Origin: Candidatus Melainabacteria bacterium
Lineage (GTDB): Bacteria; Cyanobacteriota; Vampirovibrionia; 2-02-FULL-35-15
DNA length: 64,000 nt
NCBI GenBank assembly: GCA_016193285.1
Contig: JACPSL010000025.1
Coordinates: 58,523 to 122,522 of the forward strand
Direction: 5' to 3'
A program made the position numbers and the translations under genes. Each line of letters opens with the position of its first letter. The first letter of the stretch is position 1. Below, in pieces: positions 3,394 to 64,000 of this stretch. Under the pieces are notes generated by a model. It was not told where the DNA came from. It saw nothing but the letters and a program-made list of their open reading frames with translations, and did not search any database.

Positions 3394-4315
3394 TCCTCGG
3401 GTCAATTTTCTTATACAAAAAATCAATTACTACATTTAACGTAGTTAAAATAAATGAAAAAACAATTGCAGTTCCTGTAATTAAAAAATAATCCCTGTTA
3501 GTAAATGCAGTAACAAAATATCTTCCTATGCCAGGAATTGCAAAAAGATACTCAACTACAAATGAGCCTGTAATTAAAATTGCAATTATTGGACCTAAAA
3601 TTGTGATTAAAGAAATTAAACAATTTTTAAATGCATGCTTAAAAATAATCTTATGTATTGGAAGTCCTTTTGCTAATGCTGTTTTTATGTATTCTTCTCC
3701 AAATTGTTCAAGCATTTGAGATCTAACTATTCTTGCAATGTAAGCCATTGGCAAAAAAGAAAGTGTGATAACAGGCAAAATCATATGTAGTGGGCTTTCC
3801 CATAAAGCAACAGGTAAAACTTTTAGCTTTAATCCAAATATGTTTATTAAAATTGCTCCTATTAAAAAATTAGGTAAAGAGATTCCAAGAAGAACTAGAA
3901 GTAGCAAGATCACATTGTTCTTGAAATATGCAGACATAACCCCAATAATTATTCCAAGTGGTATTGAAATTACTAGTGCAAGAAAACCTAAAGTAAAAGA
4001 TACAGGCATTGCTGAAAATAAAATCTCACTTACAGATCTGTTTACATATTTTAATGATGGTCCAAGATCACCTTTAAATAAAGAAGAAATATACATAAGG
4101 TATTGGATATAAACAGGTTTATTTAAATTATATTTTGCTTCTAAGTTTGCAATTGTTTCTGGTGGCAAACTTTTATTTCCAACAAATGGACTTCCTGGTA
4201 CAAGATAAAGTAATAAAAATGTAATTGATGCAACTAAAAAAGTTGTTAAAAAGATTTTTGCTATACCAAAGAATAAAGTTCTCACGCAGTCATCCCAATT
4301 ATATATTTTTGCCAA
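3386..4315 (-). CDS. ABC transporter permease, Opp/Dpp (peptide/nickel) family
   Basis: Six predicted TM segments and a permease architecture with an EAA-like loop region, 309 aa. Confidence 0.7.
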   Translation of the reverse strand: MAKIYNWDDCVRTLFFGIAKIFLTTFLVASITFLLLYLVPGSPFVGNKSLPPETIANLEAKYNLNKPVYIQYLMYISSLFKGDLGPSLKYVNRSVSEILFSAMPVSFTLGFLALVISIPLGIIIGVMSAYFKNNVILLLLVLLGISLPNFLIGAILINIFGLKLKVLPVALWESPLHMILPVITLSFLPMAYIARIVRSQMLEQFGEEYIKTALAKGLPIHKIIFKHAFKNCLISLITILGPIIAILITGSFVVEYLFAIPGIGRYFVTAFTNRDYFLITGTAIVFSFILTTLNVVIDFLYKKIDPRIT

Positions 4316-4800
4316 TTTGGAAAAACAGATACTGCAAGTCTTTTTGCTTCAAAATACAAATGGCCATATGGAGTTCTTGGATGTTTTAAAAGATGCATAC
4401 CAACTTCTTTTGGCGTGCGATCTCCTTTTTTTACATTACACTTTTGACAAGAAGCCACAACATTTTCCCAAGAATCATTGCCACCTCGGCTTCTAGGAAT
4501 TACATGATCTATTGTTAAGTCACTTGTTTTGGCTCCACAGTATTGACAAGAGAATTGATCTCTGTACATTAAATTTTTTCGTGTTAACGGGATTTCTTTA
4601 TGTGGCACACTTATGTACTTTCTTAGCCTTATTACACTAGGAATGTGAAAGTTAGGATATATTACTTTCCCATTATGTTCTATTTGTTCAGCTTTCCCTT
4701 TGAAAATTAAAATTACTGCTCTTTTCCAATTACAAATATTCAATGGTTCGTATGATGCATTTAAAACTAAAACTCTACTTTTAGAATTAGAATCACTCAT
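4282..4800 (-). CDS. HNH endonuclease family protein
   Basis: HNH motif CQYCG...DHVIPRSRGGNDSWENVVASCQKCN. It overlaps the permease 3' end by 34 nt. Confidence 0.8.
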   Translation of the reverse strand: MSDSNSKSRVLVLNASYEPLNICNWKRAVILIFKGKAEQIEHNGKVIYPNFHIPSVIRLRKYISVPHKEIPLTRKNLMYRDQFSCQYCGAKTSDLTIDHVIPRSRGGNDSWENVVASCQKCNVKKGDRTPKEVGMHLLKHPRTPYGHLYFEAKRLAVSVFPNWQKYIIGMTA

Positions 4801-6824: not shown

Positions 6825-7322
6825 ATGTTTTACGAACCAATCCTTAAAGAACTTAGTGAAGCTAGGATAAAATATTTAGTAATAGGTGGAGTAGCAATTA
6901 ACTTTCATGGTTACAAAAGGCCTACTCATGATCTTGACCTTCTTATTTTACTGAATGAGGAAAATATAAATAAATTTGCGGTTGTAATGAGAAAATTACA
7001 TTTTAAGCCAAGAGTACCAGTTGAGATTGAAGAAATAGCTGATAAGGCAAAGAGGGAAAAGTGGATCAATGAAAAAAATATGAAAGTATTTTCTTTATAT
7101 AATACAGACAATGAAATAGATATAGTTGATGTAATGATTCTTGATTATTTAAATTTTGAAGAGGCTTATAAAAATAGGAAAATTATTAAAATTAAAAATT
7201 TTGAAATCCCGATTGTCTCAATACCTGACCTAACCAAATTAAAGCAAATTGCTGGAAGACCACGTGATTTAATTGACATTAAAGTTTTATCTGAAATGGA
7301 GGATATTACTTATGAGAGCTAA
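6825..7322 (+). CDS. nucleotidyltransferase-fold protein (Pol-beta superfamily; possible toxin-type NTase)
   Basis: GG(x)n...DLDLLI motif, i.e. hG[GS] followed by DxD, characteristic of minimal NTases. Confidence 0.5.
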   Translation: MFYEPILKELSEARIKYLVIGGVAINFHGYKRPTHDLDLLILLNEENINKFAVVMRKLHFKPRVPVEIEEIADKAKREKWINEKNMKVFSLYNTDNEIDIVDVMILDYLNFEEAYKNRKIIKIKNFEIPIVSIPDLTKLKQIAGRPRDLIDIKVLSEMEDITYES

Positions 7323-26790: not shown

Positions 26791-26837
26791 AAAAAACAAA
26801 AAGATTTTTTGAGGTGAGGTGAGAGTGATGGGGTAGG
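26791..26837. repeat. island repeat family A, copy 1 (AAAGATTTTTTGAGGTGAGG + G-rich tail)
   Basis: One of five imperfect copies at 26791, 27551, 28251, 29076 and 29549. Each lies immediately 3' of a minus-strand cassette. Confidence 0.7.
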
Positions 26838-26856
26838 AAATTCTTCTGTTTTTGTT

Positions 26857-27054
26857 TTAAGATGCTTTTCTAACTATTTTTATTTCTGAGACATATTTTG
26901 ATTTATCAGGGTCTTTTTTTGCTATTTTACGCAGGTAATTCATGATCCTTGTCGGATTGTTTCCAAAACGAGCAGTAAGTGCTCTACCTCTGGCTCTAGT
27001 TTCTTCAACTACGGGGTCAAACCATTTAGCATTACTTTTTTTTCTTTTTTTCAT
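26857..27054 (-). CDS. small basic protein, partner of the upstream PIN protein (family shared with 28304..28459 and 39791..39988)
   Basis: A conserved D-P-[LV]-x-E...Y core shared by three paralogs, each directly downstream of a PIN gene. Confidence 0.5.
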   Translation of the reverse strand: MKKRKKSNAKWFDPVVEETRARGRALTARFGNNPTRIMNYLRKIAKKDPDKSKYVSEIKIVRKAS

Positions 27055-27063
27055 ACACTTTAA

Positions 27064-27525
27064 TTATACCCTGAGTTCAAGTGGTGTAACAATTTCAGGG
27101 AGAAATAGACCTAATGTTGCATTTATATTTTTCATATGTATTTTCTTGTTTACGTTTGCTAGATGGGCACAGTTCCAGGTTAATAAGATATCAATTTTGT
27201 AAACTGAAGCAAATGCTAGATGCAATGCATCTCTCGTATCTTTTAATGGCATTAATTTATTCTTAAGATAGATTTCAATAATCTTATCAACTTGTTCTAT
27301 AGGATTTAATATATGGATGCCTTTTGTTAGCTTTATTGCATATATTTGATTTGGGAAATTTCCTCCTTTTAGTTCTTCTAAGACAAAATTGCTTATATAT
27401 AAATCATAAAAATGTTTTTCATTGTTCCACCATTCTCTTGTTCTCTTAATATGAACATCAAGCTCTGATCTTTCATCAACATAATAACTAAAAATAGTTG
27501 TATCTAAATAAACACTTTGTTTCAT
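27064..27525 (-). CDS. PIN-domain protein (VapC-like toxin), paralog 1
   Basis: N-terminal V-Y-L-D-T-T acidic motif and C-terminal DALHLAFASV...LLTWNCAHL region shared with the other two PIN paralogs. Confidence 0.65.
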   Translation of the reverse strand: MKQSVYLDTTIFSYYVDERSELDVHIKRTREWWNNEKHFYDLYISNFVLEELKGGNFPNQIYAIKLTKGIHILNPIEQVDKIIEIYLKNKLMPLKDTRDALHLAFASVYKIDILLTWNCAHLANVNKKIHMKNINATLGLFLPEIVTPLELRV

Positions 27526-27550
27526 AATACATTTAATTTTAGCACTCTAC

Positions 27551-27608
27551 AAACACGAGAAAGATTTTTTGAGGTGGGGTGGGAGTGGTGGGGGGTAATG
27601 GGGTGAGG
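27551..27608. repeat. island repeat family A, copy 2 (longest G-tract: GGTGGGGTGGGAGTGGTGGGGGGTAATGGGGTGAGG)
   Basis: Seen directly. Confidence 0.7.
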
Positions 27609-27623
27609 TAATTAAATAGCAAC

Positions 27624-27866
27624 CTATGCAACTCGAAAGTTTTTCCCAATCGGAATAAAATTATCTGTGTGTCCTTTTTCCAACTTATTCTTAATCTCTT
27701 CAAATTTACAAACTTGTTCGGGTGTGAAAAGAATCTCTCCACACATTTCACAAACTTCTACATAAACATCAATTAATGCTGAATTGTTTCCACCATTAAT
27801 AGTGTGGATGATCTTTTTTATTTCAATTCTATCTGAACCACACGATGGGCATTTAAAGTTTTGCAT
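27624..27866 (-). CDS. YgiT-type (MqsA-like) zinc-finger protein, putative antitoxin
   Basis: CPSCGS...(20 aa)...CEMCGE zinc ribbon in an 80-aa protein. Its start lies 2 nt after the stop of the upstream toxin-like ORF. Confidence 0.6.
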   Translation of the reverse strand: MQNFKCPSCGSDRIEIKKIIHTINGGNNSALIDVYVEVCEMCGEILFTPEQVCKFEEIKNKLEKGHTDNFIPIGKNFRVA

Positions 27867-27868
27867 TG

Positions 27869-28186
27869 TTATTTCCTTTTCTTATATTCTACCCATTTCT
27901 TTGGATTAGGCCTATAAACAGTAATTAGAATGGCTATTTGAGATCCCTTATCCAGTGCCCATACAGTATGAATAGGCTCATTTTTATTATTAAAACTTAA
28001 TACTAAACACGACGGCAGCGGCTTACTACTAGGATAGTCTTCTATTACTTCAGCATGCTTAATAGATGTTTTTATTTCAAGGATCGAAATATTGTCAGCA
28101 TCTTTTTCTTGAAGAGCATGTTGAGTAATTCTAAAATTATCTGATTGAATGGCTGACTTTAAGTCTTCAAAATTTATGAATGTATT
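27869..28186 (-). CDS. DUF4258-like toxin-family ORF with no ATG start (possible pseudogene or non-canonical start)
   Basis: Stop-to-stop ORF that is not in the supplied track. Its translation ...RITQHALQEKDADNISILEIKTSIKHAEVIEDYPSSKPLPSCLVLSFNNKNEPIHTVWALDKGSQIAILITVYRPNPKKW matches the HA...R.I...YP.DKP.PS.L.......P.H.V.A......I.ITVY.P....W pattern of this toxin family. Confidence 0.45.
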   Translation of the reverse strand, partial: NTFINFEDLKSAIQSDNFRITQHALQEKDADNISILEIKTSIKHAEVIEDYPSSKPLPSCLVLSFNNKNEPIHTVWALDKGSQIAILITVYRPNPKKWVEYKKRK

Positions 28187-28250
28187 CTACAACAAGTGAT
28201 CTAATATACATGTAACCAAAGGTTACATAAGTATTTTAATTAACATTACA

Positions 28251-28298
28251 AAAACACAAGAAAGATTTTTTGAGGTGAGGAGTAAGGGGATAGAGTGA
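28251..28298. repeat. island repeat family A, copy 3
   Basis: Seen directly. Confidence 0.7.
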
Positions 28299-28303
28299 CT
28301 TAC

Positions 28304-28459
28304 TTATGCTGTTTTCTTGCTCACTTGTTTTTTAAGTTTTGCTGCTTCTTCTCTAATATATTTTACATATTCTGAAGCAGACATCTTTTTTGTCTCTTCG
28401 TAGATTTTTCTTCTTATTTTATGTAATTCTTCAAGCGGATCTTTTTCTTTTCTTTTCAT
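28304..28459 (-). CDS. small basic protein partner of PIN paralog 2
   Basis: MKRKEKDPLEELHKIRRKIYEE... aligns with the other two partners. Using the internal Met (not the tracked start at 28507) removes the 38-nt overlap with the PIN gene. Confidence 0.5.
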   Translation of the reverse strand: MKRKEKDPLEELHKIRRKIYEETKKMSASEYVKYIREEAAKLKKQVSKKTA

Positions 28460-28469
28460 ATGATTCTCC

Positions 28470-28988
28470 TTATTGTGAAACAAATTCTCTTGGTGAAACA
28501 ATTTCAATTAAGCTATAACCTTCTCGTAAATTAATTACGTGAACACCTTTAATAGTTCTAGCTCGTACGATATGTTGAAAGTTCCATGAGACAATAAAAT
28601 CACAATGATTTAAACTAGCAACAGCAATGTGAATAGCATCATTGATAGCATTAGAAGGCATCAATCCTTCATTAGTATAAATCTTAGCTAGATTATATGA
28701 TTCATTGCTTGGAGTTAGAATCTCAGGTTGATATTTTTCAACCAATCTCAATAACTGTTTACGCCTTGTGTCATAAGCTCTATTAATTTCAACTTCAACA
28801 ACTTCTGATATACAAAGTAAATGACTTTTACTTTTACCATAAACTTCTAAAAAATCTATAGTTAGCCTGTACTCACTTCTATTGGTTTCAAGAGCTAAAT
28901 TCCATATAGAGGTATCAATATAAAGCTTTGTTTTCTTAATCATTATAATGATTATAACAGCTAGTTGTTCTGTCATGATATTCAACAA
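28470..28988 (-). CDS. PIN-domain protein (VapC-like toxin), paralog 2
   Basis: KLYIDTSIWN...DAIHIAVASL...SWNFQHIV...IEIVSPREF is close to paralog 3. The likely true start is MIKKTKLY at 28943, behind a TGnTATAAT box. Confidence 0.65.
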   Translation of the reverse strand: MLNIMTEQLAVIIIIMIKKTKLYIDTSIWNLALETNRSEYRLTIDFLEVYGKSKSHLLCISEVVEVEINRAYDTRRKQLLRLVEKYQPEILTPSNESYNLAKIYTNEGLMPSNAINDAIHIAVASLNHCDFIVSWNFQHIVRARTIKGVHVINLREGYSLIEIVSPREFVSQ

Positions 28989-29075
28989 AAAATATTTCTA
29001 AAGAAAGGAGCAAAAGAAGATCTTCTTGAACTAAATTACTACTTCGCTAGAAACTAGATGATAGAAGAACTTTCT

Positions 29076-29118
29076 AAAAAACACAAAAGATTTTTTGAGG
29101 TGAGGAGTAGGGGGATAA
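29076..29118. repeat. island repeat family A, copy 4
   Basis: Seen directly. Confidence 0.7.
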
Positions 29119-29427
29119 CACATCATCAGAGCGACACATCAAATATTAAGTCTTCATTCAAATTTTATAGATGTGACTTTTGGTTGCGTGAATTTTTAAT
29201 TCAATATGATATATTTACGAGCATGATCACTGAAGATAAAAAATATATCTCAAGTGTTTTAAAGAATTTAGGGTTCGCATTTCTAACACCTTTGGGCTCA
29301 GTTACTTTTCAATATCTGGTTCTAAAAAAGAGCTTCTTTAGTGGACACACGGCCTTATGTTCATTAGCATCATTTGTTGGTTGGTGATTATTGTTTTTAG
29401 GGTATAATTTTGTTAAGGAGAAGAAAA

Positions 29428-29603: not shown

Positions 29604-30386
29604 TTATTCTACAATAATTATTGTTTTCCCAGATGGTGAGAACTTAAATTCAATACCTTCATTTTTTCTTGACAACACTTTTCTAAGAGCAATGTCAAAG
29701 TCTTGCCAATTTTGAACATTGTTTTGCATATCATTTGTAAAATCTATTTGCTCGGCAGACTCAAATGAATAACCTAGAATGTCGTTATCCACTAGTACAC
29801 GCCTTGGTATAACTCTAATATTTCCATTTTTACTTGTAGTAACTGCATAGTGTAGGTTCCCTCTCCATGTGCCTTCTCGATGAATAATCGTAAATATTGT
29901 TTTACCTGGCTCTGATTCACCTTTTAGTTCTCTTAGTTTAGGAGTTAGCTTTCTAAGTGAGCTTACTATATCAGATGTATCAAGACCATTAATTTGATAT
30001 TCTTTTAAAGCTAAAGCAGCAGCTATCAATTCTAATACGCTTGGATCAAGGGGCGCTCTTTCATGTGTGGCGTTCTCGCAGCTTTTTAAAAATGACCAAA
30101 ATTCCTCATACCTACCATACCTATCAGCTGCGTCCTGAAAACTAATATGAATTCTTTCAAGTTCTTTTTTTGCTTCGTTTAAGTTAGTTATTTGTTCTTT
30201 TGTTTCACTAGTTGTTTCTGCTCTACTCTTGAATTTGTCAGTTGTTGACTTGCTGAATATTGTATATGAGTCAGGAGTTGGCTTTAATATTCCTGATGGT
30301 TTTGGTTTCCCTTCTTCTTTTTTCTGTGCCTGCCCAACAGCTAGTGAGGGAAGCATGTTGTGTGTCATTAATGATACTGAATACAT
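29604..30386 (-). CDS. hypothetical protein (last gene of the caspase-like operon)
   Basis: A 260-aa ORF; no motif recognised. Confidence 0.5.
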   Translation of the reverse strand: MYSVSLMTHNMLPSLAVGQAQKKEEGKPKPSGILKPTPDSYTIFSKSTTDKFKSRAETTSETKEQITNLNEAKKELERIHISFQDAADRYGRYEEFWSFLKSCENATHERAPLDPSVLELIAAALALKEYQINGLDTSDIVSSLRKLTPKLRELKGESEPGKTIFTIIHREGTWRGNLHYAVTTSKNGNIRVIPRRVLVDNDILGYSFESAEQIDFTNDMQNNVQNWQDFDIALRKVLSRKNEGIEFKFSPSGKTIIIVE

Positions 30387-30480
30387 AAAAAATCAGCTCC
30401 TAGAAATACAATGCTTGTATGCAAATAAATTTGATAATGGTACAAAACTAACAGGTTCTTTAGTTCAAAAAACTGCACAT

Positions 30481-32274
30481 TTATGCAGCAATAATTTCTT
30501 CATTAATTGTTAATCTTTGATTCAATGGATTTAAATTGTTTATTAACTTAATCTTAACTGGTTTTTTATCGGGGGGTTGTTCTGTAGAGTATTGAATCAC
30601 TTTAGCGTTTTGTTTGTATTTGCTGTAATGTGCTAACTTTTTTACAGTGTGCATAGCATGAAAAATATTTCCAAAGGATGGATTTAAAGGCTCATTTCTT
30701 ATTCTCTGGTATTTTAAAAACTTATAATACCAGGATAAATAATAGTTAAATGCTGAAGATCTATCTTCACCATCAAACCCTTTCATGCTGTGATTAACGA
30801 CTAATGCTTCTTTTGCAGTTAAGGCAGCATATGACTCTCCATCTCCTGAAGAAGAAGTAATTATCGTCACATCTTTTACAGGAAGCTGCTTATTTCCAAT
30901 CTTAAAGTTTTGCAAGCAAGCAATTATTTTATCACCTTGAATTTCAGATCTACATGAGTCTGCAATTATAACAAACTTCATGCTCTTACAAAGTGGTCCA
31001 CCATTATCATCTAAGCTTGCAATTGCTTTTGCAATCTCTTCAGACGTAATATCACTGTCTGAAGCTTTTATACATCCATTCTTATCTCCATGCATATTAT
31101 AGTGAAATATGAAGGTTGTTTTACCACTAGCTTTTGCATTGTTTGCAGCTTTTATAAATCTATCTAAGATATTTTTTTTTGTAGCTGTTAAAGCTTTTGG
31201 TAAGGAACCATCTTTAACTTGTGGTAGTTCATCCCATATCCCACGGTTTTCTACACAAACAGTAAAGTCACTAATATTAAAATTTTCTTTGTAAGTCATT
31301 CCTATTTCAGCAAGGTCGTTTTCTATCTCAACTAATTCTCCAGGCACACTTGCTAAGAAACAAGCCGTACTCCCATCTTTTGGAATGTCAATTTTATAAA
31401 AATTCTCCCAGGATAATTGTTGTCCCTTAAAATTATTAGTTTCTAATTTTATTTTTTGTTTAATAAGTTCAATTAACTCATCTTCTGTTTTTATGTTACT
31501 TAATTCTAGACAACTTAATCCAATAAAAACAGGCTCACTATTTTTACTTGTAAAGTTATTAGCTAAGATGAATTCAAACACTCTGTGTATATTTCCATCA
31601 CCATTAGATATTCCAATACATTCAAGAGGAATACCAGTATCTTCCTTAACCTTATTTAAAACTGCATCCAGATTAAAATTCTTATCATTTTCTTGAAGGA
31701 TTTCAGTGAGTGTTTTATTTAAGAATACTTGGGTTTCCTTAAATGTAACTGTTTTTTGAAGGTTATTCAAAATAGCTTTTAGTTTTTTTGCAGTAGAAAT
31801 TACTTCACTAGCATATGGTTCATATTCATATAAACTTTTTGCTTGGTTTTCAAGGATAAAGTTAGGATCTATCAGGGCTAATTTAAATGCTGCTTCTTTT
31901 CTTATTTCTCTTGCTTTTTTGCTGCCAAGAGTTTCTTCTAATTTTTTGTAGTCGGTAAATATTAATCTTGGATTTTTTTCAACAGATGCATCTATACCTT
32001 CTTTAGGTATTTTTTCTAATTCTTCTTGATTCTTCTTATTTATTTCAACAGCGTTTGTAAAAAAAACAGATTTTATGAATCTTCCAAGTAATATAAATGG
32101 TGAAAAAAGTATTTTTAGCATTTTTACGAAAGTGCTACTTTTATCTTCAAGTACTTGAACTGATTGATACTGAGAGTTATTGGATTTAGCAAGTAAGGAG
32201 TTATTATGAGAACTAACATGTTGCAGATTATTCTTGTCCTCAACTTGATTTCTAAATCTAAAGCTAATTTCCAT
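30481..32274 (-). CDS. caspase/metacaspase-like (clan CD, C14-type) cysteine protease-domain protein
   Basis: The C-terminal half has FIFHYNMHGDKNG ... (46 aa) ... FVIIADSCRSE. This is a His-Gly / Asp-Ser-Cys dyad with the spacing and flanking beta-strand pattern of metacaspases (FHYSGHG ... DSCHSG). Confidence 0.6.
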   Translation of the reverse strand: MEISFRFRNQVEDKNNLQHVSSHNNSLLAKSNNSQYQSVQVLEDKSSTFVKMLKILFSPFILLGRFIKSVFFTNAVEINKKNQEELEKIPKEGIDASVEKNPRLIFTDYKKLEETLGSKKAREIRKEAAFKLALIDPNFILENQAKSLYEYEPYASEVISTAKKLKAILNNLQKTVTFKETQVFLNKTLTEILQENDKNFNLDAVLNKVKEDTGIPLECIGISNGDGNIHRVFEFILANNFTSKNSEPVFIGLSCLELSNIKTEDELIELIKQKIKLETNNFKGQQLSWENFYKIDIPKDGSTACFLASVPGELVEIENDLAEIGMTYKENFNISDFTVCVENRGIWDELPQVKDGSLPKALTATKKNILDRFIKAANNAKASGKTTFIFHYNMHGDKNGCIKASDSDITSEEIAKAIASLDDNGGPLCKSMKFVIIADSCRSEIQGDKIIACLQNFKIGNKQLPVKDVTIITSSSGDGESYAALTAKEALVVNHSMKGFDGEDRSSAFNYYLSWYYKFLKYQRIRNEPLNPSFGNIFHAMHTVKKLAHYSKYKQNAKVIQYSTEQPPDKKPVKIKLINNLNPLNQRLTINEEIIAA

Positions 32275-32352
32275 AATTAAAAAGATATGTTTAGGATTTT
32301 TATCCTAATATTTACAAAGTAAAAAGAAATTAATTTTTGATAATTTTTATGA

Positions 32353-33378
32353 TTAAGTGTTTTGAGTAACGTAATTCCAGGTAGGTGTAAATATCTTATC
32401 CTTTATAGCATTGCCAGCAAATTGATTTAAAAGTCCACCAGCACAAATTCCAGTGCATATTGTAAGCCCAATTGCTACCCAACCTACAGGGCTTATTAAA
32501 GCAAATGCTGCAGCTATTCCAAGTCCACACAAAGCTATATTTGTCCAAGCTTCACTAGTTCGCCCACCGTGAAATTTATTAACAATGCCAGCTATTTCAA
32601 AACCTGCTCCAAGTACTGACGCAATACCACCTAACCATTTAAGAGTACCTGCAAAAAATCCTTTCCATGAAGCTCCTGTTCCATTGATCGCTCGTCCTAC
32701 CAATGTTCTAGTCGACCATAACTTTTTATCATAAGATGCCAATTTAAATGCTTTATCAGCACCCATATATTTAGCTCTTTCGAAACCACTTGCAATTCCA
32801 CCTAGTTGAGCCATATTTACAGGATGAGTAAAAGCATCTCTTGCATTAGTACCTTTAAGAGTTTGTATAATGTCGTACTTATCTAATAAGAAATCTGGAT
32901 CTTTTATATGATCTTGTATGAGTTTGCATATTTTTAAGAAGTCTTCAGCATTAGATATTTTAAAGTTGCTTGCTAGTTCTTCTAACTTTTCTTTATTATA
33001 TTTTTTGTCTTCATCAAGGTTATCATAATTATCCTGTTCAGTATTTTTTCCTAACTGATCAATTATGTTACCTATTTGAATTACATCGAGCTTTCCACCT
33101 GTTACAGTATAAAAATGTTCTGCAAGAGATCTCATTTCTCTTTTATCTCGTTCTATTTGTCCATTAAGTTCTAAGAGTCCTTGATTATCTCTGGGTATTC
33201 CAATAAGAGCTGACTGAATAGCACTTTCTCTTGCAGTATAGCTTAAGCCTTTTTTGTTTTTATATGCTTCTCTTAGTTTTGCTAATTTAGGTTCAACATC
33301 ACTACCACCATCTCCAAGAGCTGTACTTGTTCTTCTACTACTACCAGTACGTGGTACAAGTATTTTAAGTATTATCAT
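32353..33378 (-). CDS. glycine-zipper membrane protein (soluble N-domain plus C-terminal 2-3 TM Gly/Ala-zipper helices)
   Basis: C-terminus LGGIASVLGAGFEIAG...RTSEAWTNIALCGLGIAAAFALISPVGWVAIGLTICTGICAGG...KDKIF; paralogous to the C-terminal domain of 37321..38121. Confidence 0.55.
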   Translation of the reverse strand: MIILKILVPRTGSSRRTSTALGDGGSDVEPKLAKLREAYKNKKGLSYTARESAIQSALIGIPRDNQGLLELNGQIERDKREMRSLAEHFYTVTGGKLDVIQIGNIIDQLGKNTEQDNYDNLDEDKKYNKEKLEELASNFKISNAEDFLKICKLIQDHIKDPDFLLDKYDIIQTLKGTNARDAFTHPVNMAQLGGIASGFERAKYMGADKAFKLASYDKKLWSTRTLVGRAINGTGASWKGFFAGTLKWLGGIASVLGAGFEIAGIVNKFHGGRTSEAWTNIALCGLGIAAAFALISPVGWVAIGLTICTGICAGGLLNQFAGNAIKDKIFTPTWNYVTQNT

Positions 33379-33502
33379 AATATTCTCCTAAAATAATATT
33401 TTGTTATTCACTACATACAAAGCAATATGTTGTAGTTAGTTGATAGGAGATTATTGAAAGGGAGCAAGATTTATTGTTAACAAACTTATAACTAATTTGT
33501 TC

Positions 33503-35800
33503 TTATTTTTCTTTAGGATCAAATCGTCTGTCATTCACAGATATAGGTATGTTTAAATATTTATTATGTTCATTTTGAGGGACGCCAGCAGCAACAAGTG
33601 TGTTACGGTCAAATTTTTGTGTTGGATGGAGTAATTCGTGTTGTTCTTGATCGTCCTGATCCTTCTTTGTTGGAACAAGTCTTTCAATACTATCTTTTAC
33701 TAGATATGCCCAGGAGTAAGATGCTGCCCTATTTAATGATTCTGTTGGCAAAGGATAAACATGAGGTCTTCCAGCAAAAAGTTTTAATTCGTCTGTTTCT
33801 CCTTTTTCTTTACGGTGTGCTATTAATATCTTTATACAGTCTAAAAGCCTAAGAGCTGTTTTATTGTCAGGATTATTTTCATCTTTTATATTTTCATCAT
33901 TAATTTTGCTTTCATCTGGTGCTTTAAGATCTACTTTTAATGTTTCTGAAATATCTTTTAAAAGACAATCAGTTTTAACTACATATTCTTTAAAATGACT
34001 TGGTTTGTTGTTTGTATCAAGAACAGCTATTAGAATAGTACACCAATCATCTCTGTAATAAACTTTTACTCTTAAATTATTATGGTTAAATGCTGGCAAT
34101 GATTTACCTAGTACTGATCCTATTTTCTCTTCTAGTTTTTTTTCATCTGTTGTTGTTTCGTAGATATTCTCTGGCAATTTAATTGAACCTACAAATTCTT
34201 TGTCTAAATCTTTTCTTTTTTTTCTACTTAACGCAGAATCAAACGAACTTCTTAATTCCTCTCCATCTTTACCTTGAATCTCCCTTATATAGCCACTTTT
34301 TAAATCTGCCAAATCTCCTGCAAAAATAACTTTTCTACTTCTCTTCTCTTGTATTTTAAATGCTTCAAGAATATCTTGATTTGGGTCAGTAGTAGCTTTT
34401 ATAAAAACTACATGCTCAATAAATAATTTTCTTAGCTTTTCTGTTGTATCATCATTGTCATTGCTCTTTAATTTCGATTTTTCATCCTTATCTATTATTT
34501 TGGCCTTCTCTAGCTCATCTAGAAATTTATCTTTAGTAAATGTAATTGAATAAGCTTGGTAGTTTCCTGCTGCATCTTTTTTCCAGATTAGCGATTCACA
34601 GCATAGAGTCTCACTTGGAGTACCTTCACTAGTCTTAAAAGTGGAAAGTGTAATTCTGTATTCATCTTCATTAATAAACGGCGGCCTTCTATTTGGTGGA
34701 ATATTTGTAGTCGAAGATTTTGGGTAACCTTTTAAATAATCATTAACTACTGGATTATTTTTTTCAATCTTAACTTGTGAAATAGATTCTGGTCTATAGC
34801 TAGAATCTGTTGATTTTCTGTATAGATCTTCGTATGTTGTACTTTCTATAAATTTTGCACCATCTTGAGCTAGTTGTTCTTGATCATCACTAGCTACATA
34901 TGTTTTATACAATAGCTCTGTAAACCTCTGATGTCCATTTTTAAATTCAACTTCACTACCAGGAGGGCGATAACTTCTGCCTGTTGGGCTTAAAAATATT
35001 ACATTTTTAACCTTGTCCTGCTCAGATGAGTTGACAGCTAAATCCTCAAATTCCCTAGTCCCCCACAACGCAATTTTTATTTTTTTATCAGGATCAGTTG
35101 ATCCAAAATATTCAATTGTCTGTTTAGCTTTAGCTAATGGAATAATAATTTGTCTGTTTTCTTTTTTACTAGAAAAGTTTTCATCTCCTACTATGTAGTG
35201 TATATCCTTTCTGTCTACTATCCACGCTGTTACAGTCTGTAGTGTTTTACCTTCTCTATCTTTTACTTTATAAGTACCAAGACTTATAACATTTGAATCT
35301 TCTTCATGTGGAGTTTCTTTTTTGTATCGATTTATGTGTGCTAATAGATCTCTTGGGGTGTCTGTTTTTTCAAGCCTTACAATTATTTCAGGTTTAGGAG
35401 GAGAAGGTCTTGTATCTGATGGTGGAGCTGGTTTTGGAGTAGTGCTACCAGTAGAAGAGTCCTCTATCAGCTTTCCATCTTTTGACAAATTTAATAACTC
35501 TAGTACATTTTTCTTTTGCTCATTGCTTAGAGATGATTCTCCTAAATGTCTAATGTAATCAAAATAAAGATTTTGTTTTGAACTAAATTCATCTTTTGTA
35601 ATAAGAATTTGGTTAAAGTTACTAAGATGACCAATACTTAAAGCAGCTTTTAATTCTTCTGTGGTAAGTAGTCCATCTTTTTTTCCAACTACCTTACCAG
35701 AGCGATCCAGTATTCCAATTGAAAGATCAGTTTTTAATAGCTGTTGTATTTTTTCTATTCTTTGTTGTATAGAAGGAGTTGTTGTAGCAGGTGGATCCAT
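33503..35800 (-). CDS. large hypothetical protein with a Pro/Thr-rich linker
   Basis: A 765-aa ORF with a low-complexity linker (STGSTTPKPAPPSDTRPSPPKPE); no catalytic motif recognised. Confidence 0.5.
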   Translation of the reverse strand: MDPPATTTPSIQQRIEKIQQLLKTDLSIGILDRSGKVVGKKDGLLTTEELKAALSIGHLSNFNQILITKDEFSSKQNLYFDYIRHLGESSLSNEQKKNVLELLNLSKDGKLIEDSSTGSTTPKPAPPSDTRPSPPKPEIIVRLEKTDTPRDLLAHINRYKKETPHEEDSNVISLGTYKVKDREGKTLQTVTAWIVDRKDIHYIVGDENFSSKKENRQIIIPLAKAKQTIEYFGSTDPDKKIKIALWGTREFEDLAVNSSEQDKVKNVIFLSPTGRSYRPPGSEVEFKNGHQRFTELLYKTYVASDDQEQLAQDGAKFIESTTYEDLYRKSTDSSYRPESISQVKIEKNNPVVNDYLKGYPKSSTTNIPPNRRPPFINEDEYRITLSTFKTSEGTPSETLCCESLIWKKDAAGNYQAYSITFTKDKFLDELEKAKIIDKDEKSKLKSNDNDDTTEKLRKLFIEHVVFIKATTDPNQDILEAFKIQEKRSRKVIFAGDLADLKSGYIREIQGKDGEELRSSFDSALSRKKRKDLDKEFVGSIKLPENIYETTTDEKKLEEKIGSVLGKSLPAFNHNNLRVKVYYRDDWCTILIAVLDTNNKPSHFKEYVVKTDCLLKDISETLKVDLKAPDESKINDENIKDENNPDNKTALRLLDCIKILIAHRKEKGETDELKLFAGRPHVYPLPTESLNRAASYSWAYLVKDSIERLVPTKKDQDDQEQHELLHPTQKFDRNTLVAAGVPQNEHNKYLNIPISVNDRRFDPKEK

Positions 35801-35805
35801 AGTTA

Positions 35806-36933
35806 TTAATTTGTAAGTGGAACAAAATTTCTTACTCCTTTACCTTCTGTATGTTCAACTTCAGCAATACTTCCATCAATAAGATTAGTAATTGTTTTAT
35901 CACTTGCACTAATACTTAAAACTAAGTCTTGCATAAGATTCATACCTCTTTCCCTAAGTGAAATTAATTTATTATAAAAATCTTCTCCAAATCTTTCTAT
36001 GACAGAATTTTTACCGGCAGGGCGTTGAAGGTAGTCATCTTGTCCAAGAAATATAGCTTTTTTGTTTTTAATTTCGTTTGCATTTTCTCCTTTTAAAGTG
36101 AGAGCTGAAACAAAGTCAATTAATTTTTGACCTCTTAAAAATACATAGCCTTCATCTTTTTCTAATTTATCTAAGTAGTCTTGTTTATATGTTCCTCTAA
36201 ATGCAAGTCTTGTATTACGGGATGAGTCTTGGTCTGAGTACCATATTATAAAAGCAGGTTTATTTGTACCTTTTCTAATATAGTGAACTATTTTTACCTT
36301 ATTCCCAGCATCTACTGATTTGACATCTGATGGTTTAGTCCCTTCTGCAATATCAGTATCTATTGCTCTTTTTATATCATCAGGTATAGTTCCTGCTGGT
36401 GTTGCACTTGTTGATGTTACAGTATCTGCTGGTTTTATTTTCTTAATTAGATCTTCTAATTTTGTAAGTATTGCTTTTTGATCACCAGTTAAATCAGTAG
36501 CTGCTTTAAGCTTGTCAATTAAGTCAAGAAGTTTTTCTTCAGCTTCTTTATTCTTAAAACTAAAACTACCGTCCGGATTTCTAACAATTAATCTTTGTGA
36601 AATTAGTATGACTACTGGTTCCACAAAGCCCGGGAAAATTTTGCTTAAGAATTCTTTAGCTTGATTTATTTCCTCTGGAGTATAATTAAAGTCATCTGGC
36701 TCGAGAGTTTCATTTGCACCTCTTTTTGCAATTTTTTTAACTCTTTCTTGATCTACTTCATTAGTACCTCCTGCTTTGATAAAGCGATCAACATTCTTGT
36801 TCAGTTGATCATACAGTGCTCCTTGGGCAGGATTAGTCTTTTTTTCTTCTTCAATCTTATTTTGAAATTCTTTCTTACTAGTAGGTTTTCCTGCGTTAAA
36901 TAATTTACTGATTAAATCTAATGTTAAACCCAT
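35806..36933 (-). CDS. hypothetical protein (first gene of the minus-strand operon)
   Basis: A 375-aa ORF, 5 nt upstream of the next gene. Confidence 0.5.
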   Translation of the reverse strand: MGLTLDLISKLFNAGKPTSKKEFQNKIEEEKKTNPAQGALYDQLNKNVDRFIKAGGTNEVDQERVKKIAKRGANETLEPDDFNYTPEEINQAKEFLSKIFPGFVEPVVILISQRLIVRNPDGSFSFKNKEAEEKLLDLIDKLKAATDLTGDQKAILTKLEDLIKKIKPADTVTSTSATPAGTIPDDIKRAIDTDIAEGTKPSDVKSVDAGNKVKIVHYIRKGTNKPAFIIWYSDQDSSRNTRLAFRGTYKQDYLDKLEKDEGYVFLRGQKLIDFVSALTLKGENANEIKNKKAIFLGQDDYLQRPAGKNSVIERFGEDFYNKLISLRERGMNLMQDLVLSISASDKTITNLIDGSIAEVEHTEGKGVRNFVPLTN

Positions 36934-38959: not shown

Positions 38960-39096
38960 TGCTTTTCTCCTTTAATATAAGGTTCTTAAATAGTTGCTTA
39001 CCTTCAAGTTATACAAATATATTTGCTAAAAAAATTTGATAGCAAAATTTAAAACTTAATACTCTTACTTAAAAACAAGTTAAAGAATTAAAAATA

Positions 39097-39669
39097 TTAC
39101 ACTTCTAATTTACGAGTAATATGGAAATATGAATTTTCAATTTGGGTTATCATTTCATTAAGTGTTTTATTGTCAAACTTTAAATCATTTAGTTTAATAA
39201 TCCCTTTAAATATTCCTATTTTATTTAAGTCAATTCCTTTTTCAATAATTTTTTGGGTGGGTATATTATCAGAGATAAAAAAGGAAAATTTATCATATTC
39301 AATATATAAAGGATTAATTTTTTCAAGAATGTTTTCAATGAACAAGATTATAGGAAAGTTATTACTTATACATGCATAAGATTGTGCTTTAGAACCAACT
39401 GAAAAAGCAATGTTAATTTTTCTGTCAGTAAGATACCTGTTTAAAAATACAGATCTGCAAATCGTTGAAAACTCTTCAAATAATCCAAATATTGATATGA
39501 TCCATCCAATAATTTTTGCCTCTAATTTATTTTCTTCCAGAACTTTTTTTATTTCGCTCGTGTTTTGAGCAGTAATAGTTACATCATGACCTCTTGACTT
39601 TAGTTCACTACTTAGTGCCTTTATAAAAGGAATGTGTTTAGGGTTATCAATGTCAAGCCAGATGTGCAT
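39097..39669 (-). CDS. DUF354-like protein fragment (N-terminal ~190 aa of a ~340-aa family; likely truncated)
   Basis: N-terminus MHIWLDIDNPKHIPFIKAL...LKSRGHDVTITA matches the conserved DUF354 start (MKIWIDI.N.PHV.F). A family B promoter/stub repeat sits in front of it. Confidence 0.4.
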   Translation of the reverse strand: MHIWLDIDNPKHIPFIKALSSELKSRGHDVTITAQNTSEIKKVLEENKLEAKIIGWIISIFGLFEEFSTICRSVFLNRYLTDRKINIAFSVGSKAQSYACISNNFPIILFIENILEKINPLYIEYDKFSFFISDNIPTQKIIEKGIDLNKIGIFKGIIKLNDLKFDNKTLNEMITQIENSYFHITRKLEV

Positions 39670-39727
39670 TTTTTACTTTATATTGTTTTTTTTTCATGAC
39701 TTTGACTTTATTATACCCAGTTTTTGC
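39670..39727. repeat. island repeat family B, copy 1 (promoter plus MKKKQYKVK antitoxin stub)
   Basis: The minus strand reads CTGGGTATAAT-AAAGTCAAAGTC-ATGAAAAAAAAACAATATAAAGTAAAA. The stub runs out of frame into the DUF354 ORF. Confidence 0.65.
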
Positions 39728-39790
39728 CTTGCTTTTTTATCCGCTGCTCCATAATGCTTGACAGTTTTGCTGAGTGAATCAAAGCTTAAG

Positions 39791-39988
39791 TTAACCTGCT
39801 CTTTTAAACTCACTAAAAAGTTTGTCAATATTTTTAACAGGTCTAACTTGTTTTCTTAATTTTTCGAATTCTCTTGCACCTTTACTTATATAAGCAAAGT
39901 ATTCTTTTGCATTCATGTTTTTGGTTTTTTTATAGTTTTCTCCACGGATTTTATGTAATTCTTTTAACGGATCATCATTTTTATTCAT
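39791..39988 (-). CDS. small basic protein partner of PIN paralog 3
   Basis: MNKNDDPLKELHKIRGENYKK...YFAYISKGAREF; family shared with 26857..27054 and 28304..28459. Confidence 0.5.
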   Translation of the reverse strand: MNKNDDPLKELHKIRGENYKKTKNMNAKEYFAYISKGAREFEKLRKQVRPVKNIDKLFSEFKRAG

Positions 39989-40015
39989 TGTATTTACCCC
40001 CTTATTTATTAATAT

Positions 40016-40501
40016 TTATTTTCCCAAGAATTGTCTTGGTGAAACTAATTCTATTAATGCATAACCTTCTCGTAGATTAATTATGTGTACTCCTTTGACA
40101 ACCTTTGCTTTGACTATATGCTTAAAGTTCCATGAAACAAGAAAGTCGCATTTGATTAATGATGCTATTGCAATATGCATAGCATCATCTCTATATTTAG
40201 CTGGTATTAATTTTTCACTAATGTAGGTATTTGCTAAGTTAAGTGTTTCTTCTTTATCAGGTTGAATAACTTCTGGGCTAAATGAATCAATTAATCTTGC
40301 AAGTTCATTTTTTCTTTTAGCACTTGCCCTATTCATCTCATCTTCTACAAGGTCTGAGATTAGTACTGTATAATTACTTCTCTTGTTTCTAAGCATCTTA
40401 AAAAAATCCCATGTTACTAAACAATCTGCTCTTTCTGTTTCGAGAGCAAAATTCCAGACTGAAGTATCAATATAAAGTTTTAGTGGTTTCCCCATTTTCA
40501 A
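40016..40501 (-). CDS. PIN-domain protein (VapC-like toxin), paralog 3
   Basis: LKLYIDTSVWN...DAMHIAIASL...SWNFKHIV...IELVSPRQF. Confidence 0.65.
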   Translation of the reverse strand: MKMGKPLKLYIDTSVWNFALETERADCLVTWDFFKMLRNKRSNYTVLISDLVEDEMNRASAKRKNELARLIDSFSPEVIQPDKEETLNLANTYISEKLIPAKYRDDAMHIAIASLIKCDFLVSWNFKHIVKAKVVKGVHIINLREGYALIELVSPRQFLGK

Positions 40502-40545
40502 TTTTTACTTTATATTGCTTTTTTTTCATGACCTTGACTTTGCTA
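40494..40545. repeat. island repeat family B, copy 2 (promoter plus 13-codon MKKKQYKVKIENG stub directly before the PIN start)
   Basis: Seen directly. Confidence 0.65.
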
Positions 40546-40661
40546 TCCTAAAGTATCTTAATTATATCCTCGGGGTAGATTTAAGTACAGAAGCAGGCTT
40601 TAACTCAAAGCCCATATTTACTTGCAAGAAATGTTTATCCATGGTCAATATTTCCTTAATT

Positions 40662-40934
40662 TTAAATTCTTGCATAACGACCATTGAAGACAAATCTACA
40701 AAAGAAATCCTTATAAACTACAGAATCTATTAATTCAGGGGTTAGTTCCTTATAATCTACTTCTGCACTTATACACCCTATTAATTCTTTAAGTAAGGCT
40801 TTATCTTCAGGATCCTCAAAATTTTCCTCTTCAAGAAAAATTATTATTCCTTCCTTGAAATTACTTAGATCTAAAGGTTCTAAAGGTTTTATTTCTCCAT
40901 TTTCAATTTTTACTTTATACTGTTTTTTTTTCAT
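40662..40934 (-). CDS. DUF104-type (KVKIENGEIKPLEPLDL) antitoxin-family protein
   Basis: The N-terminal consensus is typical of small antitoxins paired with PIN toxins. Confidence 0.55.
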   Translation of the reverse strand: MKKKQYKVKIENGEIKPLEPLDLSNFKEGIIIFLEEENFEDPEDKALLKELIGCISAEVDYKELTPELIDSVVYKDFFCRFVFNGRYARI

Positions 40935-40975
40935 GACTTTGATTTTATTATACCCAGTTTTTGCTTATACTTGGT
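40894..40975. repeat. island repeat family B, copy 3 (the intact promoter and 5' end of the DUF104 antitoxin gene)
   Basis: Seen directly. Confidence 0.65.
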
Positions 40976-40981
40976 TTACAA

Positions 40982-41114
40982 GGGTGACTTCCGTGAGAAA
41001 ATGATCAGTACTGTCTAAGGTGCAGTAGCAACTTAAAGGATTTAACTGGTTTATCCAGTAAATCCGATCAAGCAAGGAAGAGCGACAAACGGAAGCTTCA
41101 GCTTGTCTGAAGCT
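40982..41114 (+). ncRNA. GC-rich structured element / 5' leader ending in a perfect hairpin GCTTCAG-CTTGT-CTGAAGC 7 nt before the ATG
   Basis: GC content is well above the flanking DNA. A terminal helix CTTCCGT/ACGGAAG encloses ~100 nt. The hairpin spans 41096..41114. The minus-strand ORF across it (40965..41189) looks non-coding. Confidence 0.3.
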
Positions 41115-41121
41115 ATAAAAA

Positions 41122-41808
41122 ATGAAAGCAATTATTTTAGCTGGTGGAAAAGGTGAAAGGCTTAGTCCTCTTACAAGTAATTGTCCCAAGGGAATGATAA
41201 AAATAGAAGGTAAACCAATACTTGAATATCAAATTGAATGGTTAAAAAAGTATGGTGTCACAGAAATTATTTTTGCATGTGGGTATCTACATGAAAAAAT
41301 CAAAGAACACTTTAGAGATGGGGACAACTTTGGTATAAAGGTTTTTTATTCTGTTGAAGATGAACCTCTTGGTCGTGGTGGGGCTATTAAAAAAGCTCTC
41401 AGCATTCAGCATTCAGCATTCAGCTCTTTTTTAGTTATGAACGGTGATGTGCTTACTGAGATGAATTTAAGTTTAGCAATCAATGCTCATAACCTTGAAA
41501 AAAAAGATAAAAATATTATTGCTACAATTTGTTTGTTTCCTTATAAAAGTCCATATGGAATTGTAAGAGTAGAAAAAGATGGATTAATAAATAACTTTGA
41601 TGAAAAAGGAGCATTGCCTTATTGGCTAAATGGAGGGATTTATATTTTTGAAGCTGAAATAAAAAAATATTTACCTGACAAGGGCGATCATGAGACAACT
41701 ACTTTTCCAGAATTAGCAAGTAAAAAATTATTATATGGTTATAAATCCATTGATTTTTGGAGAGGAATTGATACTATAAAAGATTTAAACGAATTTTTAG
41801 TTACATGA
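41122..41808 (+). CDS. sugar-phosphate nucleotidyltransferase
   Basis: N-terminal ILAGGKGERLSPLT nucleotide-binding motif; 228 aa. It contains an in-frame CAGCATT x3 repeat. Confidence 0.75.
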   Translation: MKAIILAGGKGERLSPLTSNCPKGMIKIEGKPILEYQIEWLKKYGVTEIIFACGYLHEKIKEHFRDGDNFGIKVFYSVEDEPLGRGGAIKKALSIQHSAFSSFLVMNGDVLTEMNLSLAINAHNLEKKDKNIIATICLFPYKSPYGIVRVEKDGLINNFDEKGALPYWLNGGIYIFEAEIKKYLPDKGDHETTTFPELASKKLLYGYKSIDFWRGIDTIKDLNEFLVT

Positions 41809-63090: not shown

Positions 63091-64000
63091 TTACAACTTT
63101 TCTCGTGAAAATAGCTTGAGATAATCGCGATAAATAAATCTTTGGTAACGACTTCGACCAGTTATCTCATGTAATATTTCAGCTTTTGTAAACTTTTCTA
63201 TAAGTGAACTGATATTTCCCCTAGAAAACAGTCCAGAAAATTTACCAACTAATTTAGCATCTACAATTGGACTAGAATAAAGCTTATTTAAAAGAGCTAA
63301 AGCTGTTTTAGCGTTTCTGCCAAAGGTTGATACCTTTTTCATATGTTCTTCTCTAAGCCTTGAAATTTTTAGCGCTGTTTCCACTGCTTCGTTTGAAACT
63401 ATTTTTACTCCCTCAAGGAAATATTTTAACCAGCTGCTCACACCATCTTTGGCTCTGTATTCATTTAACTTGTTGTAATAATCTGTTCTATATTTATTAA
63501 AATAATCAGAAAGATATAATAAAGGTTTGTTTAATATATTCTCATTAATAAGATATAGTGTAATCAATAACCTTCCTATCCTTCCATTGCCATCTAAAAA
63601 TGGATGGATAGTTTCAAATTGAGCATGTATTATTCCTGTTTTAATTAACTCTGGTAATCCATGACTTTTGTCATGGATAAATTTTTCTAAATCATTTAAT
63701 GCTTTTTGCATTTCAGGTACTGTAGGAGGTACAAAAATCGCTGTTTGCAATGTTGCTCCTCCAATCCAGTTTTGGCTTCTTCGAAATTCTCCTGGTAATT
63801 TATGATGTCCTCTAACTCCATGTAGAAGTTCTTTATGAATTTCTTTTATTAGTCTAAGTGATAGGGGCAAACTTTTTAATCTTTTTATCCCATAATTCAT
63901 TGCTTTTACATAATTTTTAACTTCACCAACATCAGAAGGAGGTTTTTCATCTTCTAATTTTGCTTCAGCTTTAATTAAATCTATTAAGGTAGCTTGTGTT
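63091..64000 (-). CDS. Fic-family protein (5' end lies outside the window)
   Basis: Fic motif HPFLDGNGRIGR. The frame stays open to the window edge upstream of the tracked Met. Confidence 0.8.
   Translation of the reverse strand, partial: TQATLIDLIKAEAKLEDEKPPSDVGEVKNYVKAMNYGIKRLKSLPLSLRLIKEIHKELLHGVRGHHKLPGEFRRSQNWIGGATLQTAIFVPPTVPEMQKALNDLEKFIHDKSHGLPELIKTGIIHAQFETIHPFLDGNGRIGRLLITLYLINENILNKPLLYLSDYFNKYRTDYYNKLNEYRAKDGVSSWLKYFLEGVKIVSNEAVETALKISRLREEHMKKVSTFGRNAKTALALLNKLYSSPIVDAKLVGKFSGLFSRGNISSLIEKFTKAEILHEITGRSRYQRFIYRDYLKLFSREKL

Follow-up and report, generated by a model that had tools for sequence, protein, structure and literature searches.

A short segment, the 5' end of an AF2212-like antitoxin gene, occurs three times on the minus strand in a Candidatus Melainabacteria MAG: at the head of the antitoxin gene itself (copy A), before an unrelated PIN-domain gene (copy B) and before a DUF354-like gene (copy C). 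We think that the stubs are probably footprints of illegitimate recombination, by long target duplication, deletion and promoter capture, in a toxin-antitoxin (TA) hotspot, with B and C surviving as dead gene-start leftovers. The initial annotation had likewise read the copies as recombination footprints that place the start of an antitoxin gene before unrelated genes, and that reading stands; several details of the mechanism it proposed do not. All positions are those of the window, the whole 64,000-nt stretch of DNA that was analysed.

Three copies of an antitoxin gene start

The three minus-strand copies claimed by the initial annotation share a 31-nt core, GTCATGAAAAAAAARCARTATAAAGTAAAAA, at 39670-39700, 40502-40532 and 40907-40937. 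The sequence was assembled from a metagenome and is rich in A/T. Could the likeness be due to chance, or to mis-assembly across a repeat? We give this practically no weight. Three core matches were found and 0 were expected (100 dinucleotide-preserving shuffles), which also disposes of low-complexity A/T runs as the source of the similarity. Mis-assembly is ruled out because contigs from four sequencing runs, assembled independently, are 100% identical over 39000-41200; the repeats are, moreover, shorter than one sequencing read. The encoded peptide also fits the conserved N-terminus of the antitoxins.

The segment consists of a -10-like box (GGGTATAAT), a 12-nt leader, an ATG and then the opening codons (MKKKQYKVKIENGE) of the antitoxin gene. 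The limits of each copy were set from an alignment of the three with their flanks. Copy A (40892..40964, minus strand) carries GCAAAAACTGGGTATAAT, with the box at 40947-40955, the leader at 40935-40946, the ATG at 40934 and antitoxin codons 1-14. It heads an intact gene of 90 codons (40662..40934, minus strand), as had been proposed. Copy B (40487..40541, minus strand) begins 20 nt past the stop codon of a PIN-gene remnant, directly at the 12-nt leader (AAAGTCAAGGTC), and continues through its ATG at 40529 and codons 1-14; it is without the promoter box. Copy C (39670..39727, minus strand) has GCAAAAACTGGGTATAAT (TATAAT at 39710-39715), the leader, an ATG at 39697 and about nine codons, and its 3' end, GTAAAAA, lies immediately 5' of the DUF354 ATG.

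A repeat search grouped the copies into a 66-nt family in which C is 92% identical to A and 76% to B. Identity between A and C is about 95% with the promoter region included, and the left boundary of their shared stretch is sharp and lies beside a GCAA microhomology. These features indicate that the resemblance of A and C probably goes back to a recent copying event. The coding parts of the stubs differ at three nucleotides, and all three differences are synonymous (P = 0.004 for random substitutions, 0.037 for transitions only). This suggests that the copies may have diverged while they were still part of working antitoxin genes, or were copied from such genes.

The initial annotation had placed an extended -10 in all three copies. 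The box is indeed present in A and C, but it is absent from B; TGGGTATAAT departs from the canonical extended -10 (TGnTATAAT), and no -35 box was found at the copies. Scanned with a sigma-70 consensus, none of the three copies gave a promoter; nor did a terminator turn up between the genes. The GGGTATAAT box stands 8-21 nt 5' of the ATG in six antitoxin genes (A and C of the window, and loci L008, L013, L016 and L021), and we infer from this sequence pattern that copies A and C may be active promoters.

The resident operon and the two junctions

The gene headed by copy A scores weakly against the AF2212-like profile (PF01954/DUF104), at 18.8 bits and under the 21.6 cut-off; four of eight homologues match that profile at E<=0.01 (best E 2.4e-5). 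Its residues 1-77 align with the whole of the 77-aa antitoxin of L021. The last 13 residues form an aberrant tail, which is the remnant of a PIN gene read out of frame. That remnant (40562..40711, minus strand) comprises the last ~49 codons and the stop of the cognate toxin gene, the first ~104 codons being deleted. Between 40595 and 40711 it encodes 39 aa that match residues 105-143 of the L007 PIN protein, the partner of a homologous antitoxin, at 74% identity, and its identity to the PIN protein of L021 is 80%. The suspected PIN C-terminal remnant overlapping the 3' end of the antitoxin gene is thus real. Given the aberrant tail and the 39-aa match, a deletion would have taken the antitoxin stop codon together with ~104 PIN codons. 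In the window the antitoxin has no intact adjoining toxin gene; intact pairs occur in L007, L010 and L021. L016, with a frameshifted antitoxin and a truncated PIN gene, is a further deletion relic. Within the locus of the window, both decay events removed a PIN toxin, the direction in which decay is viable.

In VapBC-type type II TA systems, a conserved N-terminal antitoxin domain is combined with varied C-termini and toxins. Seven homologues of antitoxin A follow this pattern: they have MKKKQYKVKIENGEIKPLEPLDL..KEGIIIFFEE in common and diverge thereafter, and homologues are partnered by PIN (L007, L010, L021) or PemK (L008) toxins. A shared N-terminus with varied partners is the usual modular architecture of antitoxins. 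The stubs differ from it: modular antitoxins break in frame after about residue 37, at a domain boundary, whereas the stubs break at codons 9-14 and out of frame.

Does the stub occur elsewhere? An exact-pattern search of 185,579 GTDB species genomes and of JGI metagenomes found no further copy. Scanning the GTDB genomes with back-translated MKKK[QE]YKVK gave five loci and no stub among them: two are Melainabacteria antitoxin genes, one full-length and one frameshifted, beside tRNA-like sequence (judged by eye), and the other three are unrelated chance matches. Unusual conservation of the stub at the DNA level across genomes was rejected by eye, L008 differing at most synonymous sites. Rfam and tRNA scans of the window returned no matches, and NCBIfam supplied a name for none of the five proteins submitted.

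At junction B the stub meets a gene for a 159-aa PIN-domain protein, PIN159 (40016..40495, minus strand), which is followed by a gene for a 65-aa partner, presumed to be its antitoxin (39791..39988, minus strand). PIN159 has a full-length native N-terminus, MGKPLKLYIDTSVWNF; N-terminal length is the same in 28 of 28 aligned relatives (M.K..KLYIDTSVWNF), and on this uniformity the ATG at 40495 is taken from sequence as the native start. Copy B had been described as ending after 13 codons, 1 nt before the PIN ATG. The length holds (13-14 codons), but the PIN ATG lies inside stub codons 12-13. The junction falls within a 9-10-nt microhomology, AATGG(A/G)GAAA, between antitoxin codons 12-14 (AATGGAGAAA) and the native PIN start, ATG-GGG/AAA-AAA. 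Read onward, stub B forms a 20-codon mini-ORF (40467..40529, minus strand; MKKKQYKVKIENGETTKTLY) that runs 29 nt into the start of PIN159, which is read in the +1 frame.

At junction C the cargo is a DUF354-like gene of 190 codons (39097..39669, minus strand). The initial annotation was right that about nine stub codons run into it out of frame. It had also called the gene truncated, which we reject: six homologues of 187-191 aa are equally short and align with it end to end, and the gene is a full-length member of this conserved family. About 9 nt of microhomology join antitoxin codons 7-9 (AAAGTAAAA) to the native DUF354 leaders, which at the match read GAAAAGTAAAATG in L104 (longer reading GAAAAGTAAAATGCAC) and AGAGTAAAAATG in L102 (longer reading AGAGTAAAAATGCAC). 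The stub C mini-ORF, as read from the sequence (39653..39697, minus strand; MKKKQYKVKNAHLA), has 14 codons and overlaps the start of the DUF354-like gene (ATG 39669), which is in the +1 frame.

Each cargo gene is in the +1 frame relative to its stub, with a TAA in the cargo frame just 5' of the cargo ATG, so that no fusion protein of stub and cargo is possible; fusion by frameshift or slippage is rejected for the same reason. The initial annotation had likened the arrangement to the swapping of cargo in polymorphic toxins, from which this finding departs; the stubs are also too short to make a domain. The fixed point of recombination that it had supposed is not supported either. The junctions lie at different positions, at about codons 7-9 for C and 12-14 for B, each in its own cargo-specific microhomology of 9-10 nt.

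The gene order of the locus is found intact in L021, a distant syntenic relative (~50-70% aa identity). There a divergent NTP-transferase gene (71% identical) adjoins a 77-aa antitoxin (62% identical to residues 1-77 of antitoxin A), a 152-aa PIN protein (the 80% match to the remnant), a 10-nt gap and a DUF354-like protein of 190 aa (52%). This order makes it plausible that an antitoxin-PIN-DUF354 operon was the ancestral state. In the window, by comparison with L021, the PIN stop and the DUF354 ATG stand ~890 nt apart, the interval being taken up by stub B, PIN159, the 65-aa gene, a spacer and stub C. L021, which is only a distant relative, is without the cassette and has the stub sequence at its antitoxin start and not between PIN and DUF354, while the window has a third copy, A.

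A mobile cassette flanked by copied gene ends

PIN159 is the first gene of a mobile two-gene cassette. The 65-aa partner is kept beside the PIN gene across the family, in L008, L017, L018, L019, L105 and many of 80 metagenome loci. PIN genes 71-91% identical to PIN159 occupy four other contexts: within the 5' part of tsaD (L017), at the 3' end of an efflux gene (L018), 3' of an HD-domain gene (L019) and in a further, different setting in L105 (71% identical). DNA homology between cassettes runs from ~20 nt before the PIN ATG to at most ~15 nt around the partner's stop codon. The B and C repeats enclose just the PIN159 and 65-aa genes, with no mobility gene.

In the window the cassette is flanked by a 40-nt direct repeat formed by copies B and C (40541-40502 and 39709-39670; 38/40 identical). 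Its relatives are flanked by other sequences. In L017, 45 nt of tsaD coding sequence stand on both sides, the downstream copy being part of the tsaD gene (the contig ends at codon 55). In L018, 18-24 nt of the 3' end of the efflux gene are found on both sides. No flanking repeat was present within the 178 nt of upstream sequence of L105, and the downstream sequences of L019 and L020 were too short for this comparison.

Is such flanking a general property of the family? At a score of >=19, flanking direct repeats were detected in 13 of 67 testable metagenome loci (~19%), as against 2 of 315 positional controls drawn from the same loci (0.6%) and 0 of 67 reversed controls (P = 4e-9). Without tandem modules the count is 11/67, and with two-copy repeats only it is 6/67 (P = 5e-4). 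At least four of these repeats are copied gene ends; the others are multi-copy or array repeats (array-type in L066, L091 and L059). L073 repeats 46 nt of the 3' end of a gene. Two loci show the start of a host gene repeated before other genes: L086 repeats the upstream region and ~20 codons of a 66-aa gene, with the stub upstream and the intact gene downstream, and in L097 the start of a GMC-oxidoreductase gene is present in three copies, one of which is fused to an unrelated 224-aa gene. The copied gene ends of the relatives measure 18 to ~130 nt.

The window contains a second array of this kind (26800..29117, minus strand). There, three TA cassettes (PIN157+51 aa, DUF4258+zinc-ribbon and PIN153+65 aa), one of them of the PIN159 family, are set off by four copies of a ~34-45-nt repeat with the core CTCACCTCAAAAAATCTTT.

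Close relatives of the PIN159 cassette carry no antitoxin stub and are bracketed by copies of whichever host gene received them. This points to the stub as a by-product of target duplication, and probably not a portable recombination site.

Origin of the stubs and relation to known systems

Copy A still heads the antitoxin gene, its PIN partner having been deleted to 49 codons; on our preferred explanation, B and C would be non-coding relics or duplicates of the antitoxin gene start. Illegitimate recombination guided by microhomology would have joined both to native start codons: B to the small PIN-plus-65-aa cassette, which sits at different sites in related genomes, and C to the conserved DUF354-like gene, the third gene of the intact operon of L021. 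Together B and C make up the direct repeat that brackets the cassette, which fits insertion with long target duplication. In sum, the operon would have lost resident toxin genes and taken in a foreign cassette, and each downstream gene would have kept or regained a start of transcription and translation from the antitoxin gene, that is, promoter capture.

The order of events that we infer is a hybrid one, which seems the most economical. The cassette would have arrived between the PIN and DUF354 genes, a duplicate of the 5' end of the operon would have been placed before DUF354, and microhomology deletions would have followed. Plain target duplication fits poorly. Under it the two copies should be coextensive, with an intact target gene on the downstream side; of B and C, only C has the promoter and only B has codons 10-14, so that B reaches 4-5 codons further, and the downstream copy, C, heads DUF354 and not an intact antitoxin gene. 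A history of deletions alone would require an ancestor with three AF2212-type antitoxin-PIN pairs in tandem. The topology is compatible with Campbell-type integration via the 40-nt core, but no stub accompanies the cassette in its relatives. Each of the three models, pure target duplication, pure deletion and Campbell-type integration, fails to account for one feature, and none yields a unique order of events.

Might the 5' end of the antitoxin gene instead be a portable site, its leader and nine codons providing homology for single-crossover entry of circularised cassettes and for repeated exchange of cargo? The sequence from B to C (codons 10-14, PIN159, the 65-aa gene, the spacer and the A-like promoter) is, formally, a circularly permuted promoter-stub-cassette unit, as Campbell-type integration would give. 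Three copies that are 92-95% identical over 40-66 nt could support RecA recombination, and multi-copy arrays do exist in L097 and in the second array of the window. We nevertheless regard such a site as unlikely. It would have to account for cassette relatives that lack the stub and are bracketed by different host-derived repeats, and for right-hand junctions of B and C that differ and lie in cargo-specific microhomology. The degenerate GTDB scans yielded only the two antitoxin genes, full-length or decaying, and no stub; the variation between strains that the initial annotation expected at the junctions was absent from the four available assemblies; and the subset of window ORFs that was scanned included no integrase or transposase. 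A different proposal holds that the stubs were kept by selection as a regulatory device, near-leaderless promoters with mini-ORF leaders that couple translation of PIN159 and DUF354, with copy C repressed by antitoxin A. Both cargo genes are without a Shine-Dalgarno sequence and start inside a mini-ORF. In structure prediction the A/U-rich 5' region of copy A stays unstructured, and copy B forms an 11-bp hairpin around the PIN ATG, pairing stub codons 5-8 with PIN codons 6-10 (dG -9.9, z -1.9). On these grounds, translational coupling through the overlapping mini-ORFs is possible. The promoter region, besides, is near-identical in C and A, and in L104 a 5-codon mini-ORF stops 1 nt 5' of the DUF354 ATG. 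Selection for such a device is nonetheless improbable in our estimate: the same genes are expressed without stubs in relatives (L008, L018 and L102), the hairpin of copy B is explicable by conserved codons (YK versus LY), and the tails of the mini-ORFs differ and are unconserved.

The nearest documented parallel is insertion with long target duplication, described for restriction-modification (RM) systems (Nobusato et al. 2000, Gene 259:99; Furuta et al. 2010, PMC2853133; reviewed in PMC3874152). The duplications there are tens to hundreds of bp long, are copied from the host, often overlap gene ends and enclose inserts without mobility genes; the H. influenzae cases measure 46 bp, and the duplication has been attributed to DNA cleavage by the RM system (PMC2853133). 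The cassette of the window is similarly free of a recombinase and flanked by direct repeats of >30 bp, but its unit is a TA pair with a PIN (RNase-type) toxin, and copies B and C are not coextensive. A literature search found nothing on long target duplication in classical TA modules, an absence that is no proof of novelty. A second parallel is promoter capture by microhomology-mediated deletion or amplification in an E. coli selection experiment (Li & Bock 2019, PMC6614815). There, too, a gene was joined to a resident upstream promoter or gene start through short homologies, with a few donor codons left; the process in the window is read from natural sequence. Putative mobile promoters, in turn, are upstream segments of 50-100 nt with >=80% identity that stand before non-homologous genes within a genome (Matus-Garcia et al. 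2012, PMC3488235). A and C, at 92% over 66 nt, fall within this definition, and B reaches only 76%; unlike those promoters, the segment in the window extends past a start codon into coding sequence, and its source gene can be identified; B is without the promoter part.

Arrays of small cassettes split by a repeated segment are also known from polymorphic-toxin and orphan cassette exchange and from integrons. The present case differs from the former in that no toxin domain is swapped in frame. It differs from integron cassettes in that no attC-like inverted repeats flank the cassette and no integrase occurs among the subset of window ORFs scanned. Overall, the stubs look like a variant of known processes and not a dedicated device for shuffling genes.

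The recurrent flanking repeats around the PIN cassette family, several of them copied ends of host genes, are the more interesting lead. A tentative generalization, in which we have distinctly less confidence than in the account of the stubs, is that small type II TA cassettes without a recombinase (PIN plus a ~50-70-aa partner) may enter chromosomes by long target duplication, repeatedly at the same gene end. They would thereby build arrays bracketed by copies of host gene starts or ends, which would donate promoters and start codons as well as homology for further exchange.

The stubs themselves are evolutionary debris, yet they offer a base-by-base view of how a TA hotspot is remodelled, through deletion of a toxin, entry of a foreign cassette into an operon and refitting of downstream genes with the start of an antitoxin gene. 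The wider flanking-repeat pattern, with two repeat-punctuated arrays in the window, may matter more than the stubs. If it holds, it would extend long target duplication from RM systems to classical TA modules. Since PIN toxins are RNases and do not cut DNA, the pattern would also speak against the idea that the element causes the duplication by cleaving DNA. It would, finally, provide a recombinase-free route for the spread of TA modules, together with a source of gene-start pseudogenes that confuse annotation.

Repeated gene starts in the first array

Three minus-strand copies of an antitoxin gene 5' end lie in the first toxin-antitoxin (TA) array. Copy A, which heads the intact AF2212-like antitoxin, carries a run of nine A residues immediately 3' of its ATG (40923-40931, minus strand), as does copy C, the stub abutting a DUF354-like gene (39686-39694, minus strand); copy B has eight A residues followed by G at the same place. 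Nine residues may be enough for slippage at copies A and C, during either transcription or replication. Stub B runs into the start of PIN159, a 159-aa PIN protein, and the ATG of that gene is enclosed by a perfect 11-bp hairpin (40468-40478 with 40507-40517, minus strand; predicted dG -9.9 kcal/mol, z -1.9). Its arms pair codons 5-8 of stub B (CAAUAUAAAGU) with codons 6-10 of PIN159 (ACUUUAUAUUG).

Another simple repeat lies nearby, on the plus strand. The gene at 41122-41808, a sugar-nucleotidyltransferase that is first in a polysaccharide cluster, contains a perfect heptanucleotide tandem repeat, TCAGCAT x3.7, at 41399-41424. Because the unit length is not divisible by 3, slippage would change the reading frame, and the repeat is a possible phase-variation switch.

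A second array and other defence-type genes

The window holds a second cassette array at 26800-29117 (minus strand). Here, four direct-repeat copies of ~34-45 nt bound three TA cassettes: PIN157 with a 51-aa partner, belonging to the PIN159 family; DUF4258 with an 80-aa zinc-ribbon protein; and PIN153 with a 65-aa partner. The repeat core is CTCACCTCAAAAAATCTTT, for which the chance expectation is 0.04, and a 109-aa hypothetical ORF (29058-29387, plus strand) shares its codons 7-20 with the rightmost copy. The DUF4258 reading frame (27872-28186, minus strand) has a domain match at E 1.8e-20, and the stretch from the upstream stop to the domain contains no ATG, GTG or TTG. Either this frame is a pseudogene or its translation begins at a rare start codon.

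Between the two arrays is a block of five large genes on the minus strand (29604-36933; 375, 765, 341, 597 and 260 aa). A Pfam search of the five proteins returned nothing except a caspase domain in the 597-aa protein (PF00656, 24.7 bits). One possibility is that this block encodes an uncharacterised system for defence or cell death. Interspersed with housekeeping genes of the window are other genes of the addiction or defence type: a Fic/DOC protein (63091-63900, minus strand), an AbiEii-like nucleotidyltransferase (6825-7322, plus strand) and an HNH endonuclease (4282-4800, minus strand).

Related arrangements in other loci

In two other Melainabacteria MAGs (L016, 6540-7150; L013, 2900-3710), the homologous antitoxin immediately follows a tRNA-like sequence, identified by eye. 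The L016 antitoxin carries a frameshift, and the PIN that goes with it breaks off after ~25 codons; the PIN of L013 has an in-frame TGA.

Consecutive small cassettes, PIN modules among them, are set apart by multi-copy repeats in L091 (2464-4865; a 250-nt repeat, three copies) and L066 (124-5144; an attC-like repeat of ~90 nt, at least five copies). Both arrays may be integron-like.

A repeated gene start was also seen in L097 (1600-3210), where a GMC-oxidoreductase gene start occurs three times: the outer two copies have ~45 nt of upstream sequence in common, and the one in the middle is short and has diverged. Copies 2 and 1 have a PIN cassette between them, and copy 3 is joined in frame to the unrelated 224-aa gene behind it, a topology that resembles that of copies A, B and C. 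Upstream of a homologue of the 190-aa DUF354-like protein in L104 (170-210), a TATAAT box precedes a 5-codon mini-ORF (MKAEK) whose stop codon lies 1 nt upstream of the DUF354 ATG. Possibly this mini-ORF is a relic comparable to the stubs in the window, but older and shorter.
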